A DNA stretch of 64,000 bases from Escherichia coli (GCF_029227855.1 NZ_CP074356.1); one strand, 5' to 3'; positions 27,470 through 32,951 are shown, counted from the stretch's first letter. Notes: a model not told the origin generated them from the letters alone. Made by a program: numbers and translations.

Positions 27470-27745
27470 CTGCGCTAGCGCAGGCCAGAAGAGGCGCGTT
27501 GCCCAAGTAACGGTGTTGGAGGAGCCAGTCCTGTGATAACACCTGAGGGGGTGCATCGCCGAGGTGATTGAACGGCTGGCCACGTTCATCATCGGCTACA
27601 GGGGCTGAATCCCCTGGGTTGTCACCAGAAGCGTTCGCAGTCGGGCGTTTCGCAAGTGGTGGAGCACTTCTGGGTGAAAATAGTAGCGAAGTATCGCTCT
27701 GCGCCCACCCGTCTTCCGCTCTTCCCTTGTGCCAAGGCTGAAAAT
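27470..27745 (+). promoter_or_regulatory. lysC leader containing the lysine riboswitch (L box); boundaries approximate
   Basis: Long GC-rich structured 5' UTR directly upstream of lysC with conserved-looking segments (agaggcgc..., ...gggggtgcatcgccgaggtgattgaacggctgg...); the E. coli lysC leader is an established lysine riboswitch. Confidence 0.65.
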
Positions 27746-27768: not shown

Positions 27769-29118
27769 ATGTCTGAAATTGTTGTCTCCAAATTTGGCGG
27801 TACCAGCGTAGCTGATTTTGACGCCATGAACCGCAGCGCTGATATTGTGCTTTCTGATGCCAACGTGCGTTTAGTAGTCCTCTCGGCTTCTGCTGGTATC
27901 ACTAATCTGCTGGTCGCTTTAGCGGAAGGGCTGGAACCTGGCGAGCGATTCGAAAAACTCGACGCTATTCGCAACATCCAGTTTGCCATTCTGGAACGTC
28001 TGCGTTACCCGAACGTTATCCGTGAAGAGATTGAACGTCTGCTGGAGAACATTACTGTTCTGGCAGAAGCGGCGGCGCTGGCAACGTCTCCGGCGCTGAC
28101 AGATGAGCTGGTCAGCCACGGCGAGCTGATGTCGACCCTGCTGTTTGTCGAAATCCTGCGCGAACGCGATGTTCAGGCACAGTGGTTTGATGTACGTAAA
28201 GTGATGCGTACCAACGACCGATTTGGTCGTGCAGAGCCAGATGTAGCCGCGCTGGCGGAACTGGCCGCGCTGCAGCTGCTCCCACGCCTCAATGACGGCT
28301 TAGTGATCACCCAGGGATTTATCGGTAGCGAAAATAAAGGTCGTACAACGACGCTTGGCCGTGGAGGCAGCGATTATACGGCAGCCTTGCTGGCGGAGGC
28401 TTTACACGCATCTCGTGTTGATATCTGGACCGACGTCCCGGGCATCTACACCACCGATCCACGCGTAGTTTCCGCAGCAAAACGCATTGATGAAATCGCG
28501 TTTGCCGAAGCGGCAGAGATGGCAACTTTTGGTGCAAAAGTACTGCATCCGGCAACGTTGCTACCCGCAGTACGCAGCGATATCCCGGTCTTTGTCGGCT
28601 CCAGCAAAGACCCACGCGCAGGTGGTACGCTGGTGTGCAATAAAACTGAAAATCCGCCGCTGTTCCGCGCGCTGGCGCTTCGTCGCAATCAGACTCTGCT
28701 CACTTTGCACAGCCTGAATATGCTGCATTCTCGCGGCTTCCTCGCGGAAGTTTTCGGCATCCTCGCGCGGCATAATATTTCGGTAGACTTAATCACCACG
28801 TCAGAAGTGAGCGTGGCATTAACCCTTGATACCACCGGTTCAACCTCCACTGGCGATACGTTGCTGACGCAATCTCTGCTGATGGAGCTTTCCGCACTGT
28901 GCCGGGTGGAAGTAGAAGAAGGTCTGGCGCTGGTCGCGTTGATTGGCAATGACCTGTCAAAAGCCTGCGGCGTTGGCAAAGAGGTATTCGGCGTACTGGA
29001 ACCGTTCAACATTCGCATGATTTGTTACGGCGCATCCAGCCATAACCTGTGCTTCCTGGTGCCCGGCGAAGATGCCGAGCAGGTGGTGCAGAAGCTGCAT
29101 TTTAATTTGTTTGAGTAA
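27769..29118 (+). CDS. lysC: Lysine-sensitive aspartokinase III
   Basis: 449 aa ORF MSEIVVSKFGGTSVADFDAMNRSADIVLSDANVRLVVLSASAGITNLL... Confidence 0.97.
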   Translation: MSEIVVSKFGGTSVADFDAMNRSADIVLSDANVRLVVLSASAGITNLLVALAEGLEPGERFEKLDAIRNIQFAILERLRYPNVIREEIERLLENITVLAEAAALATSPALTDELVSHGELMSTLLFVEILRERDVQAQWFDVRKVMRTNDRFGRAEPDVAALAELAALQLLPRLNDGLVITQGFIGSENKGRTTTLGRGGSDYTAALLAEALHASRVDIWTDVPGIYTTDPRVVSAAKRIDEIAFAEAAEMATFGAKVLHPATLLPAVRSDIPVFVGSSKDPRAGGTLVCNKTENPPLFRALALRRNQTLLTLHSLNMLHSRGFLAEVFGILARHNISVDLITTSEVSVALTLDTTGSTSTGDTLLTQSLLMELSALCRVEVEEGLALVALIGNDLSKACGVGKEVFGVLEPFNIRMICYGASSHNLCFLVPGEDAEQVVQKLHFNLFE

Positions 29119-29262
29119 TATTTCCCTACTGGCGTATAACGCTCACCGATTGTTATACGCCATCCTCACTGAAAACATAGATTAAATAATATCTGAAAAG
29201 CAAAATCACTCCTGTAGAACAGTATTATAATCACCGAAAAATATCATTTAACAGGAGTGTTA

Positions 29263-30189
29263 ATGGCTACTTTAATGGAAAAAGATGCACTTTTAAACGG
29301 AGCCAGTCAGTGCATCGCGTTTTTATCAAATATCATTGATAATTGCTCAGTTTCGTCGCATCAGGATTCAGGCGATGCTCTCAAGCGATTAGTCAGCTAT
29401 CGCGATTATCTTTATTCTACCCCCGCTGAACTTGTTGATTTTACACAAGGTAAGATTCTCCTTCAGCAGGTAAGAACTCAATATCAGCATGAATTCAACA
29501 ATACTACGCATTCAGAAAATAAAGCATCTTTTGATTCTATTTGGCAGCGTCTGACAAATCATGAAGTCACACCGCAACAGCATCCCATTGGTTTTGTTTT
29601 AGGTGGGCAACCCGGAGCAGGTAAATCATCTCTGATTGAATTAGCCAAAAGAGAGACAAAAGATAATATAATGATTATTAACGGTGATGATTTTCGATTT
29701 CTACACCCTGATTTTAATTATATCTACCAAAATTATGGGGATGATTTTGTTACCCATACAGCGAAATTTTCCGGCGAAACGGTCGAACGTGCAATTGAGA
29801 GAGCGATAGTCAGTAAACTCAACATTGTTGTCGAAGGAACATTTCGTAATGCCGCGACGCCGTTACAAACATTAAAAAAACTCAAAGATGCAGGCTACCA
29901 AACAGAAGTCATGATAAAAACAACCTCAGCGGCATTAAGCTGGGAAAGCACCAATGAACGGTATAGTAAGGACAAAGAGGCGGGAAATATTGCCCGAAAA
30001 GTGGATAAAAACCACCATGATATCGTCACCGGTTTGCTGGCAGAAAATGCCCGCAAGGTGTTTGCTTCGAACCTGTCAGATAAGTTTGCGGTGTATTCGC
30101 GTGAGAAGATGATATTTAGTTCACAAGCGGCAACGAATGACGATATTGCAACACTTATACAGAATGAAATCAGCGGGAATACACAATAA
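29263..30189 (+). CDS. Zeta-toxin-like P-loop kinase with an N-terminal extension of about 100 aa; accessory, AT-rich
   Basis: Walker A GGQPGAGKS, Walker-B-like hhhhEG (NIVVEGT), overall zeta/PezT-like layout; ATG at 29263 preceded by aggag; the ORF track extends to a GTG at 29257; markedly lower GC than lysC. Confidence 0.7.
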   Translation: MATLMEKDALLNGASQCIAFLSNIIDNCSVSSHQDSGDALKRLVSYRDYLYSTPAELVDFTQGKILLQQVRTQYQHEFNNTTHSENKASFDSIWQRLTNHEVTPQQHPIGFVLGGQPGAGKSSLIELAKRETKDNIMIINGDDFRFLHPDFNYIYQNYGDDFVTHTAKFSGETVERAIERAIVSKLNIVVEGTFRNAATPLQTLKKLKDAGYQTEVMIKTTSAALSWESTNERYSKDKEAGNIARKVDKNHHDIVTGLLAENARKVFASNLSDKFAVYSREKMIFSSQAATNDDIATLIQNEISGNTQ

Positions 30190-30224
30190 TAATAAGAGCT
30201 GATGGCGTGAAATAACGCCGGGCT

Positions 30225-31025
30225 TTATGCCCGGCGCATTACCGTCTGGTACATTAAGCTATCCAGTTCCTTAACGTCCCCTTCTCTGCTATCCGGTAAC
30301 AGCGGTGGAATTTCCCCACGCGCCTGTTCCGCACGAATAAACGCATGTAACAATGGACGGCGCGGACCATATTCCGCTTCTCCTGCGCGCTGTTTACGTT
30401 CCAGTAATTCGTCTATTTCTGCACGTAACGGCGCATCAAGTTCGCTTCCCGCCAGTAACTCAGCAAAGCGCATTGGCGGCACGCCTTTTCCCGCTTCGAC
30501 CCAGCGCACGGCCAGCAGCGGACGCAGCACGTAAAAGTATTTTTTCAGTCGAACTTCATCGCCCTGCAAATATCCGCGGAAGTTTTTCTGCGCCATCGAA
30601 TAGTAATGCCAGCGCGCACGCAGCGGAGAAAACCACATTGGGACCATTGCCTTAAGCGCCGTTATCGTTTCTTCATCTTGTTGATAGACCACCGGAGAAT
30701 CCAGCCATTCTATCAGCGTCGGGTTCGCGCCTTTCAATAATCCCAGCGCCTTACGCCACTCCCAACCGGAAACATCTAACTCGTCGTCGATGGGCAGCTC
30801 GATAACATCGCGCGGCGGCTCCACCCGCAGATACCATTCCAGCGGGTGAACATACAAAAACCGTACATCGTAGTCGCTGTCGGGCGAGGCAAACCCCCAG
30901 CCGCGGCTCCCGGATTCACAGGCATACAGCACTTTCACGCCGTAGCGCCGTTCTATTTCTTTTAACTGCTGCGATACCCGTTCGCGCATCGCAGCACTGA
31001 CTCCATTTAATGGCATGTTACTCAC
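30225..31025 (-). CDS. Pol-beta-superfamily nucleotidyltransferase-fold protein (minimal NTase plus helical C-terminal region); accessory
   Basis: Motif YACESGSRGWGFASPDSDYDVRF (G[GS]...D.D NTase signature); starts at GTG 31025 overlapping the upstream stop (GTGA) or at ATG 31016. Confidence 0.65.
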   Translation of the reverse strand: MSNMPLNGVSAAMRERVSQQLKEIERRYGVKVLYACESGSRGWGFASPDSDYDVRFLYVHPLEWYLRVEPPRDVIELPIDDELDVSGWEWRKALGLLKGANPTLIEWLDSPVVYQQDEETITALKAMVPMWFSPLRARWHYYSMAQKNFRGYLQGDEVRLKKYFYVLRPLLAVRWVEAGKGVPPMRFAELLAGSELDAPLRAEIDELLERKQRAGEAEYGPRRPLLHAFIRAEQARGEIPPLLPDSREGDVKELDSLMYQTVMRRA

Positions 31026-32149
31026 CCTTTGATATTAACCAACCCATGCAGAACCTGATCCAGACCGCCAAATACAGAGATGTTATCGATCCGCTCAGCC
31101 ACTCTCTCCAGCGTTTCTAGCTCTTTTAAACGCAACGCTACCGGATTGTTCTCCATGACTTTGGCGGTGTTCAGTAACGAGCGCGTCGCTGCCGTTTCTT
31201 CACGTCGGCGAATCACATTCGCCTGCGCAGATTTCTCCGCCTCAACCAGCTGCGCAAGGATATTTTTCATATCGCCAGGCAGGACGATATCTTTCACCCC
31301 TAATGAAGCAATCTCCATACCAAATGGCAACATGCGCGATTTCACCTGTTCGCTGACAACGTCATCAATGACCTGTTTATCTTCCAGCAGTTCATCCAGC
31401 GTACGAGTACCTACCGCTTCACGCAGGGCAAATTGCAATTCCCGATACAAATGATCAATCGGCTTCGTTAACTGACTAAATGCCAGCAACACGTCGCTGT
31501 AGCGCCAGTTAGCGGCGAGATTAATCCGCAGATTGACCTTATCTTTCGTTAAGATTTCTTGCCCGCTGACTTCCAGTACCTGCAAGCGGGTGTCGACAAC
31601 TTCAGCCTCAACCAGATGATTTATTTTCCAGTATGCTGTCAGCCCCGGCGGTAACAGCGCCTGCGTTTCACCATCGATTTTCAGCACGCCTACATGCCAG
31701 GCCGGAACCTGCACCGTGAGTATCGCATCGCGGCCTTTAACTGCCCCTTTGCGCCGTGGTTGCAATACCGCATTCATCACCTCCGTTTGTACCTGGACTT
31801 GCTGCGTATTCATCCGCACCAGTGTCAAATCATCTTCTACACGCCAGTACAAACGGCGCGTTGATGGCGGCAGAATCTCCAGCAAAATACCGTCCATATA
31901 CAACGCCCCGGCTTCAATCTCCGACAAGTCTGCCACCAGGCAATATTTCTCCACCCAATCAGGCTGAAAGCGGCGCAAATAATCCGCCAGCACGTCGGGA
32001 ACTTCGCTGCCATCGAGCGTAATCAGCAAGACTTCTGGCGTATTTAACCAGGGTAAAAGATGCTCGCCTGCATGCAGCACTTTGTAGTAATCGCCATTTC
32101 TGGAGAGTAATGCCAGCTGATCTTTTCTTACGCTTATTTTCTTAATCAT
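31022..32149 (-). CDS. SPFH/band-7 (stomatin/prohibitin/flotillin-like) domain protein without an obvious N-terminal transmembrane segment; accessory
   Basis: C-terminal half (...LTKDKVNLRINLAANWRYSDVLLAFSQL...GMEIASLGVKDIVLPGDMKNILAQLVEAEKSAQANVIRRREE...) resembles SPFH domains; RBS-like aagga 6 nt upstream of ATG at 32147-32149. Confidence 0.65.
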   Translation of the reverse strand: MIKKISVRKDQLALLSRNGDYYKVLHAGEHLLPWLNTPEVLLITLDGSEVPDVLADYLRRFQPDWVEKYCLVADLSEIEAGALYMDGILLEILPPSTRRLYWRVEDDLTLVRMNTQQVQVQTEVMNAVLQPRRKGAVKGRDAILTVQVPAWHVGVLKIDGETQALLPPGLTAYWKINHLVEAEVVDTRLQVLEVSGQEILTKDKVNLRINLAANWRYSDVLLAFSQLTKPIDHLYRELQFALREAVGTRTLDELLEDKQVIDDVVSEQVKSRMLPFGMEIASLGVKDIVLPGDMKNILAQLVEAEKSAQANVIRRREETAATRSLLNTAKVMENNPVALRLKELETLERVAERIDNISVFGGLDQVLHGLVNIKG

Positions 32150-32678
32150 TATCTATTCCTTGCTTAACAGCCGTCGCGGAAGCAGACACGAAGCGACAGG
32201 GGAATTCCCTTTTGCCTGTTACCCGGCATCTTTATCGGCGACGTTATCGGGGATCGCTGACTGCGCAATCCCTCACTTTTTATTTAATAAGTTAAAACCA
32301 GTATTCATTTCAGGAATGAATGTGGGAATCGAACCCATAATTGGCGTCAAAGGCTGACGGAACACGCCCGGAAAACAGCCTGGCCGTTCCTGGTGTGCCG
32401 ACGGGGTTTGACCCCCTTTGTAATTCAGTTTCAACGCGTACGAGATATTGCGAGAAGCGTGCCAGAATTGAGAAAAAATTATTAACCAAATGAAAAATAA
32501 AGATTTAATAAATTATTTTTGTTTGTAGAGGGAAAACTTTTCGCTAAATTTGTATCTGTATTTATCGTCAATTATCAAGAAAGATAAATATTTAAGAAGA
32601 GAACAAAGGAATATTATCAGTTCAGCTCGCAAACGAATTCCCGTACACTGAACTCTCTGGCTCACTGAGGGCACCATC

Positions 32679-32951
32679 ATGGCACTCCCCCGTATTACCC
32701 AAAAAGAGATGACTGAACGCGAGCAGCGTGAACTTAAAACACTGCTGGATCGGGCGCGGATTGCGCATGGTCGCGTACTGACCAACTCCGAAACCAACAG
32801 CATTAAGAAAGAGTACATCGATAAATTAATGGTCGAGCGTGAGGCTGAAGCGAAAAAAGCCCGCCAGTTGAAGAAAAAGCAGGCTTATAAACCGGATCCT
32901 GAAGCGTCATTTAGCTGGTCAGCAAATACGTCGACGCGCGGCAGGCGCTGA
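32679..32951 (+). CDS. yjbD: DUF3811 small protein YjbD
   Basis: 90 aa ORF MALPRITQKEMTEREQRELKTLLDRARIAHGRVL... Confidence 0.9.
   Translation: MALPRITQKEMTEREQRELKTLLDRARIAHGRVLTNSETNSIKKEYIDKLMVEREAEAKKARQLKKKQAYKPDPEASFSWSANTSTRGRR

Follow-up and report, generated by a model that had tools for sequence, protein, structure and literature searches.

Between lysC and yjbD, the chromosome of Escherichia coli GCF_029227855.1 (NZ_CP074356.1) carries an interval of three open reading frames (ORFs) at positions 29,119 to 32,678 of the window, that is, of the whole 64,000-nucleotide stretch of DNA analysed here. An earlier note, made from the sequence alone, took these genes for one uncharacterised three-gene toxin/defence module. 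The interval is most probably two independent units instead: ezeT, and a reduced RNA-repair operon of the RtcR type that comprises a promoter, a leader RNA, a Band-7 (SPFH) protein called slipin here, and RlaP. EzeT is published and autonomous, so that part of the interval is already known, and slipin-rlaP with its leader appears to be a separate system, a reduced member of a predicted RNA-repair family. Domain identities, synteny, decoupled distribution of the two units, a promoter motif, RNA covariation, purifying selection and a predicted fold come from the present analysis, and the activities of EzeT and RlaP and sensing by RtcR are taken from the literature.

ORF calling places all three genes in the interval, with the motifs that the earlier note described. 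Its domain calls are borne out by Pfam, which assigns gene 1 to Zeta_toxin (PF06414, 1.8e-40, residues 103-284), gene 2 to Band_7 (1.2e-23, residues 147-318) and gene 3 to a nucleotidyltransferase (NTase) family of the Pol-beta superfamily, namely RlaP (PF10127, 1.7e-94).

EzeT and the distribution of the two units

Gene 1 (29263..30189, plus strand) encodes 308 amino acids from an ATG, with an alternative start at 29257, and contains the Walker A motif GGQPGAGKS. Its product matches the NCBIfam PezT model at 7.6e-38, under the equivalog cutoff, and the Protein Data Bank (PDB) entries for PezT and zeta at 5e-33 and 5e-27, respectively. The coding sequence (CDS) is that of WP_000212693.1, annotated in a complete genome that is 100% identical over the 4-kb query, and by tblastn EzeT is identical to that genome's CDS at 308 of 308 residues. 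WP_000212693.1 is the experimentally validated dual antitoxin-toxin EzeT, whose gene in B1 strains of E. coli adjoins that of lysine-sensitive aspartokinase 3 (2023 review, PMC10532202). Because the accession is identical to that of the validated protein, gene 1 is EzeT, a previously characterised single-chain type II toxin-antitoxin (TA).

In the discoverers' account, the C-terminal kinase of EzeT, which acts on UDP-N-acetylglucosamine (UDP-GlcNAc), is held off in cis by the fused N-terminal domain. Going by this published activity, the zeta-type kinase would phosphorylate UDP-GlcNAc and block peptidoglycan synthesis unless inhibited by its own N-terminal domain. The spacer between lysC and ezeT (29119..29262, plus strand, 34% GC) is the leftmost part of the variable interval; it carries the ezeT ribosome-binding site and presumably the ezeT promoter. 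No separate antitoxin ORF is present in these 144 bp (no ORF of at least 60 amino acids), and about 100 residues precede the kinase domain, which starts at about residue 103. Both features are consistent with a fused, cis-acting N-terminal antitoxin.

The distribution of the genes was surveyed in 5426 complete E. coli genomes, with the interval counted as present if at least 80% of the 4-kb query was covered. The presence/absence polymorphism anticipated by the earlier note is evident, as 1424 genomes carry the interval and most of the others have an empty site in which lysC and yjbD are about 250 bp apart. ezeT occurs in 1433 genomes, with 1370 copies at least 99% identical to the window, whereas the slipin-rlaP pair occurs in 1631 with identities spread over 90-100%; the pair therefore lacks ezeT in about 200 genomes. 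The co-occurrence of all three genes expected by the earlier note thus holds in one direction, ezeT being always accompanied by the pair, and fails in the other. Both this decoupling, which extends to every other genus examined, and the sharply different allele diversity argue against a single module.

Base composition separates the two units in the same way. The GC content is 40.3% for ezeT, 54.4% for rlaP and 50.4% for the slipin gene, and at third codon positions it is 35% for ezeT and 56% for both of the others, the same value as for lysC. These figures confirm the earlier impression of an AT-rich gene 1 beside two core-like genes, and stepwise assembly from parts of differing history is supported. 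Furthermore, ezeT is convergent to the pair. A GC-rich hairpin, CGCCGGGCTTTATGCCCGGCG (30216..30236, no strand assigned), lies between ezeT and rlaP, overlaps the 3' end of rlaP and is likely a bidirectional terminator. The sole Rfam match at this position is the terminator portion of SorX, far under the gathering score, and scans for sigma70 promoters and terminators did no better than on shuffled sequence.

Among the genera compared, ezeT is found only in Escherichia, including a cryptic-clade genome with an 87% identical allele. A second allele class of about 87% identity occupies the same position in E. coli CUWW06 (L007), where it is truncated by IS1, and in Escherichia sp. MOD1-EC7003 (L009); 47 genomes have ezeT in the 80-90% identity band. 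Because of this second class, ezeT is older in Escherichia than its near-clonal main allele implies.

The lysC side of the interval also receives mobile elements. A prophage or insertion sequence (IS) has landed at the equivalent of window positions ~29119-30224 in E. coli CUVET16-465 (L002), GN25 (L003), EC19 (L005) and AF10 (L006), where P2/Mu-like tail, Mor, holin and sheath genes and IS1 stand in for ezeT. In examples with the pair only, P2/Mu-like prophage tail genes adjoin rlaP at the place of ezeT, and in GN25 prophage/IS genes replace the entire island. In K-12-type strains, homology to the window ends precisely at the lysC stop codon (29118) and restarts at ~32549, about 130 bp before yjbD, with about 122 bp of unrelated filler in place of the interval. 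Comparison with this empty site reveals no flanking direct repeats at the interval edges, as the earlier note had judged by eye.

Promoter, leader RNA, slipin and RlaP

Upstream of the slipin gene lies a sigma54-type promoter, TGGCACgcttcTCGCA (32449..32464, minus strand), with GG at -24 and GC at -12. Of 20 regions upstream of slipin genes, 19 contain a sigma54 motif, always about 300 nt before the ATG, and other genera have TGGCAC-N5-TGGCA at the equivalent position. Farther upstream, a palindrome, TTATC-N6-GATAA (32572..32587, no strand assigned), accompanied by a CGATA motif, is conserved with sequence beside the rtcR start in other genera. By eye, the motifs, which span 32587-32560, look similar to the sequences of sister genera and also to the region upstream of K-12 rtcBA. 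The palindrome may be what is left of an upstream activating sequence for RtcR. K-12-type strains without the operon still have it upstream of yjbD, where it could be a residual RtcR site or help to regulate yjbD.

The promoter is followed by a 299-nt 5' leader (32150..32448, minus strand) with two helical domains, at 32429-32353 and 32243-32172. Between them lies an invariant sequence that resembles a tRNA T-arm, GGGTTCGATTCCC (32336-32324, minus strand). The leader is conserved in an alignment of 18 Enterobacterales genomes from about ten genera, for which RNAalifold proposes a structure of 47 pairs; compensatory changes occur in 29. In this structure 95.1% of cells are paired, as opposed to 39-51% when partners are slid by 1-3 columns, and the slid controls retain 5-11 compensatory pairs; values as high as those observed arise in no shuffle out of 500. 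In the E. coli leader, 44 of the 47 pairs are kept, and its single-sequence folding z-score is -2.0.

The leader does not read as an ordinary tRNA. ARAGORN detects no tRNA in it, and Rfam 15 contains no known RNA family that matches it (E <= 1 over 3.8 kb and E <= 10 on the leader, with no gathering cutoff applied). A canonical cloverleaf fold was considered and rejected, as the T-arm falls outside the closing helix and has its own hairpin after it. Upstream of distant slipin homologues, on the same strand, ARAGORN reports tRNA or tRNA-like genes for Thr (L039) and Pro (L053 and L060) and two genes in L058, and in L054 a tRNA-like sequence is visible that ARAGORN does not recognise.

The slipin gene (31022..32149, minus strand) encodes a predicted soluble protein of 375 amino acids with no transmembrane helix. 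Three beta-rich repeats (residues ~1-186) precede an SPFH core (~190-290) and a long C-terminal helix (292-353). An AlphaFold model built from 62 sequences has a pLDDT (predicted local distance difference test) of 90.8 and displays three five-stranded beta repeats, the SPFH core and a helical region of about 85 residues. The model is similar to stomatin and looks like a major vault protein (MVP) in miniature; its longest structural alignments are to eukaryotic MVP. It is a reasonable inference that slipin forms a homo-oligomeric scaffold, because all solved relatives build large rings or cages. The family of about 375 amino acids has 543 cluster representatives at E <= 1e-30 in a search clustered at 50%, and NCBIfam returns HflK/C matches only, all of them sub-threshold. 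A membrane operon of the SPFH-NfeD (QmcA-YbbJ) type was rejected, since slipin has no hydrophobic segment (maximum Kyte-Doolittle value in a 19-residue window, 1.13) and the interval contains no NfeD ORF.

The third gene, rlaP (30225..31016, minus strand), encodes 263 amino acids, or 266 from an alternative GTG start at 31025, and carries the motif GSRGWGFASPDSDYDV. The overlap with the slipin gene (TGA/GTG) described in the earlier note hinges on this choice, as the RefSeq ATG at 31016 leaves a 5-nt gap instead; the two genes form one operon either way. The Pfam match covers model positions 1-248 of 249, and no other Pfam family is reported. G36, S37, D48, D50 and D81 are intact in RlaP and invariant in an 11-sequence alignment down to 37% identity. 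A sequence search of PDB chains gave no match to RlaP, NCBIfam contains no RlaP model, and no literature was found linking PF10127 with SPFH or treating lysC and yjbD together.

The assignment to RlaP displaces the earlier reading of gene 3 as a minimal NTase of the kind found in TA and abortive-infection (Abi) systems. MNT-HEPN and AbiEii/MenT were considered as candidates and rejected, given that RlaP is the only Pfam family matched and that the partner gene encodes an SPFH protein rather than a HEPN protein or an antitoxin. The family is named for its association with RNA ligases ("RNA ligase-associating Pol-beta"), although no RNA ligase gene lies beside rlaP within the interval. RlaPs from Pseudomonas add one or two nucleoside monophosphates to RNA 3'-OH ends, prefer mimics of cleaved tRNA and improve the aminoacylation of over-trimmed, religated tRNA in vitro (PMC12776372, December 2025 preprint).

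Ancestry, selection and rival explanations

Orthologous loci help to place the pair. A scan for RlaP in one genome per species gave 43 loci, which were annotated by tblastn and NCBIfam. The order in sister genera is yjbD-panS-rtcR, with rtcR divergent, followed by the sigma54 promoter, a leader of about 300 nt, slipin, often rtcB, rlaP, and then lysC-pgi. It is found in several Citrobacter and Phytobacter species, Klebsiella michiganensis, K. grimontii, Kosakonia and others. Altogether, rtcR beside slipin-(rtcB)-rlaP occurs in 17 loci from Citrobacter, Klebsiella, Kosakonia, Phytobacter, Superficieibacter, Erwinia, Hafnia, Enterobacillus and relatives, most of them between yjbD/panS and lysC-pgi. 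Ten of these loci are slipin-rtcB-rlaP, and the remaining seven have slipin-rlaP with rtcR and without rtcB, a form that is stable in Klebsiella and Citrobacter too. The RtcR of the locus scores 820 bits against a curated cutoff of 650, and the middle gene encodes a ligase of the RtcB family (408 amino acids, 72% identity with RtcB of K-12). In two Citrobacter loci, rtcR (L012, 2839-4415) or rtcR, rtcB, slipin, rlaP and pgi (L038) appear as multiple shifted tblastn segments, which suggests frameshifts arising from operon decay or assembly errors.

Other arrangements share some of these genes. Pantoea and Serratia have rtcR beside rtcB-rlaP with no slipin, and Photorhabdus has rtcB-rlaP, with rtcB intact in seven of eight loci and fragmented in L028. 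In a metagenome-assembled genome (MAG) from Burkholderiales (L039, RXJQ01000083.1), rtcR stands beside rtcB-rlaP-rtcA, five tRNA genes, tRNA-Thr and slipin. The tRNA genes inside this cluster (8813-10333; Asp, Arg, Pro, His, Glu and tRNA-Thr(CGT)) look ordinary and might serve the RNA-repair operon as an array of spare tRNAs. The contexts of distant slipin homologues comprise seven loci, three of them on contigs too short to inform; two homologues (~40% identity) are again flanked by RtcR and RtcB.

For genes 2 and 3, the accessory insertion proposed in the earlier note does not stand, as the same lysC/yjbD locus holds them in other Enterobacteriaceae. They are largely widespread there, which the earlier note had itself named as contrary evidence, and by synteny they appear to be ancestral at the locus rather than inserted. 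The dS between E. coli and Citrobacter is 1.5-1.9 for slipin and rlaP and 1.06 for lysC. Because these values are of the same order, the pair fits vertical descent. The simplest history would be an ancestral operon, with rtcR divergent from leader-slipin-rtcB-rlaP, that was dismantled stepwise in Escherichia: panS-rtcR and rtcB would have been lost, ezeT gained between rlaP and lysC, and everything then deleted in K-12-type lineages.

Within E. coli and the cryptic clade, the ratio of nonsynonymous to synonymous substitution (dN/dS) is 0.02-0.05 for slipin and 0.04-0.06 for rlaP at dS of 0.17-0.63, the same range as for lysC. These ratios indicate strong purifying selection on the pair. The pair is nevertheless dispensable in E. 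coli, because alleles with stops or IS insertions exist and about 70% of genomes have no copy, yet it is maintained where present. Two MAGs labelled Collinsella sp. (L008) and Bacillota bacterium (L010) encode proteins with 98-100% identity to E. coli slipin, RlaP and EzeT and are almost certainly mis-binned E. coli DNA.

Could the E. coli pair be a functionless relic, on its way to the loss already seen in K-12-type strains? The deletion of rtcR and rtcB from the locus, the many genomes that lack the pair and the occasional inactivated alleles would all fit such a relic. So would a weak trace of the leader in the K-12 filler, where 26 nt (L004, ~897-922) are colinear with window positions 32216-32241 in leader domain 2 and match at 22 of 26. 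With a score of 32, where shuffled sequence reaches at most 30, this match is a weak possible deletion scar; the filler has no homology to the rlaP-lysC spacers of other genera. However, a relic is improbable given dN/dS values as low as those of lysC over deeply diverged alleles, ORFs that are intact in more than 1600 genomes, a retained promoter and a leader that keeps nearly all of its pairs. The form without rtcB is, moreover, stable in genera that keep rtcR.

A second alternative is that slipin-rlaP is an independent conflict system of the Abi or toxin type, in which a MenT-like RlaP would block tRNA 3' ends and the SPFH protein would serve as sensor or antitoxin. RlaP does add nucleotides to RNA 3' ends in vitro, the pair occupies a variable spot and adjoins prophages in some strains, and some distant slipin homologues adjoin TA, Fic or AAA genes with no RtcB; RNA-repair systems are themselves conflict-related. 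On the other hand, vertical inheritance, synteny with core genes across genera and core-like GC and dN/dS are not what such a system predicts, and the consistent linkage to rtcR and rtcB places the pair on the repair side of conflict. The Pfam family is RlaP rather than MenT or AbiEii, the aminoacylation of repaired tRNA is improved by RlaP in vitro, and neither slipin nor RlaP has a match in PADLOC (PADLOC-DB 2.0). Taken together, these observations make a conflict system unlikely.

That EzeT, SPFH protein and NTase form a single toxin, stress or anti-phage module, for example one in which SPFH/NTase senses infection and releases or modulates the zeta kinase, is highly improbable: the three genes are adjacent in all 1424 interval-carrying genomes, ezeT is confined to genomes with the pair and always sits at the lysC site, the site varies and is readily entered by prophages, and EzeT has no known natural trigger, but EzeT is autonomous with its own cis antitoxin in published experiments, the pair occurs widely without it, the transcription units converge on a likely terminator hairpin, composition and allele diversity differ sharply, the conserved partners of the pair elsewhere are rtcR and rtcB, and PADLOC, blank for slipin and RlaP, gives EzeT only a marginal P-loop match (PDC-M04B, E = 8e-4, no individual domain above threshold).

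If the interval is two independent units, the repair operon may act as follows. One report (PMC7790460) describes RtcR as sensing tRNA fragments, and RNA damage of this kind, perceived through the CARF domain of RtcR, would switch on the sigma54 promoter. The lysC-linked rtcR is found in none of the 5426 E. coli genomes; all matches are canonical rtcR at the rtcBA locus (5415 of 5426 genomes, 67% nucleotide identity). In E. coli, the promoter would presumably be served in trans by this canonical RtcR. Slipin may oligomerise into a stomatin- or vault-like scaffold that acts with the tRNA-like leader RNA, perhaps itself processed. RlaP would restore one or two nucleotides on the 3'-OH ends of over-trimmed RNAs, and RtcB supplied in trans from rtcBA would religate the ends that RlaP has repaired.

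Several observations weigh against this two-unit explanation or parts of it. The E. coli locus encodes neither an RNA ligase nor RtcR, and the action of RtcB and RtcR in trans is purely inferred. The locus-linked RtcR of Citrobacter is just 61% identical to K-12 RtcR, which makes cross-activation uncertain, and the E. coli -12 element reads TCGCA where other genera have TGGCA. ARAGORN and Rfam do not recognise the leader, whose equivalence to b7a-tRNA, the tRNA-like partner of Band-7 proteins, is one of position and T-arm motif alone. Decay is visible in some alleles, as L006 has an internal stop and H31 and H56 are interrupted by IS elements. Finally, ezeT is never found without slipin-rlaP (1433 genomes with ezeT, 1424 with the full island), a distribution that would also suit a functional link.

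A bolder version of the same explanation is possible but doubtful. About 30% of E. coli would then carry an orphan "mini-vault" ribonucleoprotein, made of a soluble MVP-like SPFH cage and a tRNA-like RNA, processed from the sigma54-dependent leader, that the cage contains or is guided by. Canonical RtcR would control it in trans, with RlaP rebuilding over-trimmed tRNA ends for a distant RtcB. If true, this would be an RNA-repair system divided between two loci, in a host with good genetics, and bacteria would provide a direct model for what vaults and vault RNAs do.

In the window, the gene order around the interval is pgi (minus), lysC (plus, 27769-29118), the three additional ORFs, yjbD (plus, 32679-32951), rluF (minus), pepE and yjbB. 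A lysine riboswitch upstream of lysC, at about 27481-27677 (plus strand), is annotated by RefSeq in the identical genome and was mapped from L001 82-278.

Relation to known systems

The comparison removes a false lead, as no new three-gene defence system lies here and the "toxin" had been characterised before. It also indicates that many natural E. coli, of the phylogroup B1 type and including O104:H4, O111 and O103 Shiga toxin-producing strains, keep a selectively maintained half of the predicted Rtc branch built on Band-7, tRNA-like RNA and RlaP. The locus is of value for its unannotated structured RNA, for an SPFH protein of vault-like architecture in a host amenable to genetics, and as a clear case of stepwise operon decay at one site. 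E. coli would be a convenient host for asking whether SPFH/MVP-like cages and tRNA mimics join RNA repair, and whether the RtcR regulon exceeds rtcBA.

For ezeT, the known system is EzeT itself (Rocker & Meinhart 2015). The RefSeq accession, the site beside lysC and the combination of a Zeta_toxin kinase with an N-terminal extension are the same, and no difference was found; the slipin and rlaP neighbours lie outside the published system.

The slipin protein has two structural counterparts. With the cages formed by stomatin, HflKC and prohibitin it shares the SPFH core and the long C-terminal helix, although it has neither a membrane anchor nor an NfeD partner. With MVP it shares N-terminal beta repeats, an SPFH "shoulder" and a helix, but it has far fewer repeats, and the likeness comes from a single-chain model.

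RlaP is best compared with its relatives in P. fluorescens and P. aeruginosa, which are encoded in rtcB-rlaP-rtcA operons (PMC12776372). The E. coli protein belongs to the same Pfam family over its full length and keeps the catalytic triad. Its gene follows the slipin gene instead, with neither a ligase nor a cyclase gene adjacent.

Among Rtc systems, E. coli rtcR-rtcBA shares the regulator family with the orthologous loci (identity to the K-12 proteins is 61% for RtcR and 72% for RtcB) and has a similar sigma54 promoter, but the leader of K-12 rtcBA is about 50 nt long, as opposed to the long structured leader of the slipin locus. In Salmonella rsr-yrlBA-rtcBA, Ro60 and YrlA, a scaffold and a tRNA-like noncoding RNA, hold the place of slipin and leader. 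The E. coli slipin locus differs from both in that it has RlaP but no RtcA, and an SPFH/MVP-like protein instead of Ro60/TROVE.

The closest counterpart is the association of a Band-7 protein, b7a-tRNA and RtcB, in some cases with RlaP. A 2018 preprint (bioRxiv 10.1101/312249) attributes this association to Burroughs & Aravind 2016 and describes it as interchangeable with Ro60/YrlA and as lacking experimental validation. Similarly, a 2026 preprint (PMC13404743) treats these proteins as homologues of MVP in bacteria, encoded in operons together with RtcB and noncoding RNAs. The E. coli locus has the MVP-like Band-7 protein, a structured upstream element with a T-arm motif like that of tRNAs, a downstream RlaP and a sigma54 promoter motif, and the orthologous loci of sister genera have rtcR and rtcB in the expected places. 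It differs in lacking the RtcB ligase and the RtcR regulator, and its RNA is a leader of about 300 nt with only a T-arm-like motif rather than a near-authentic tRNA.

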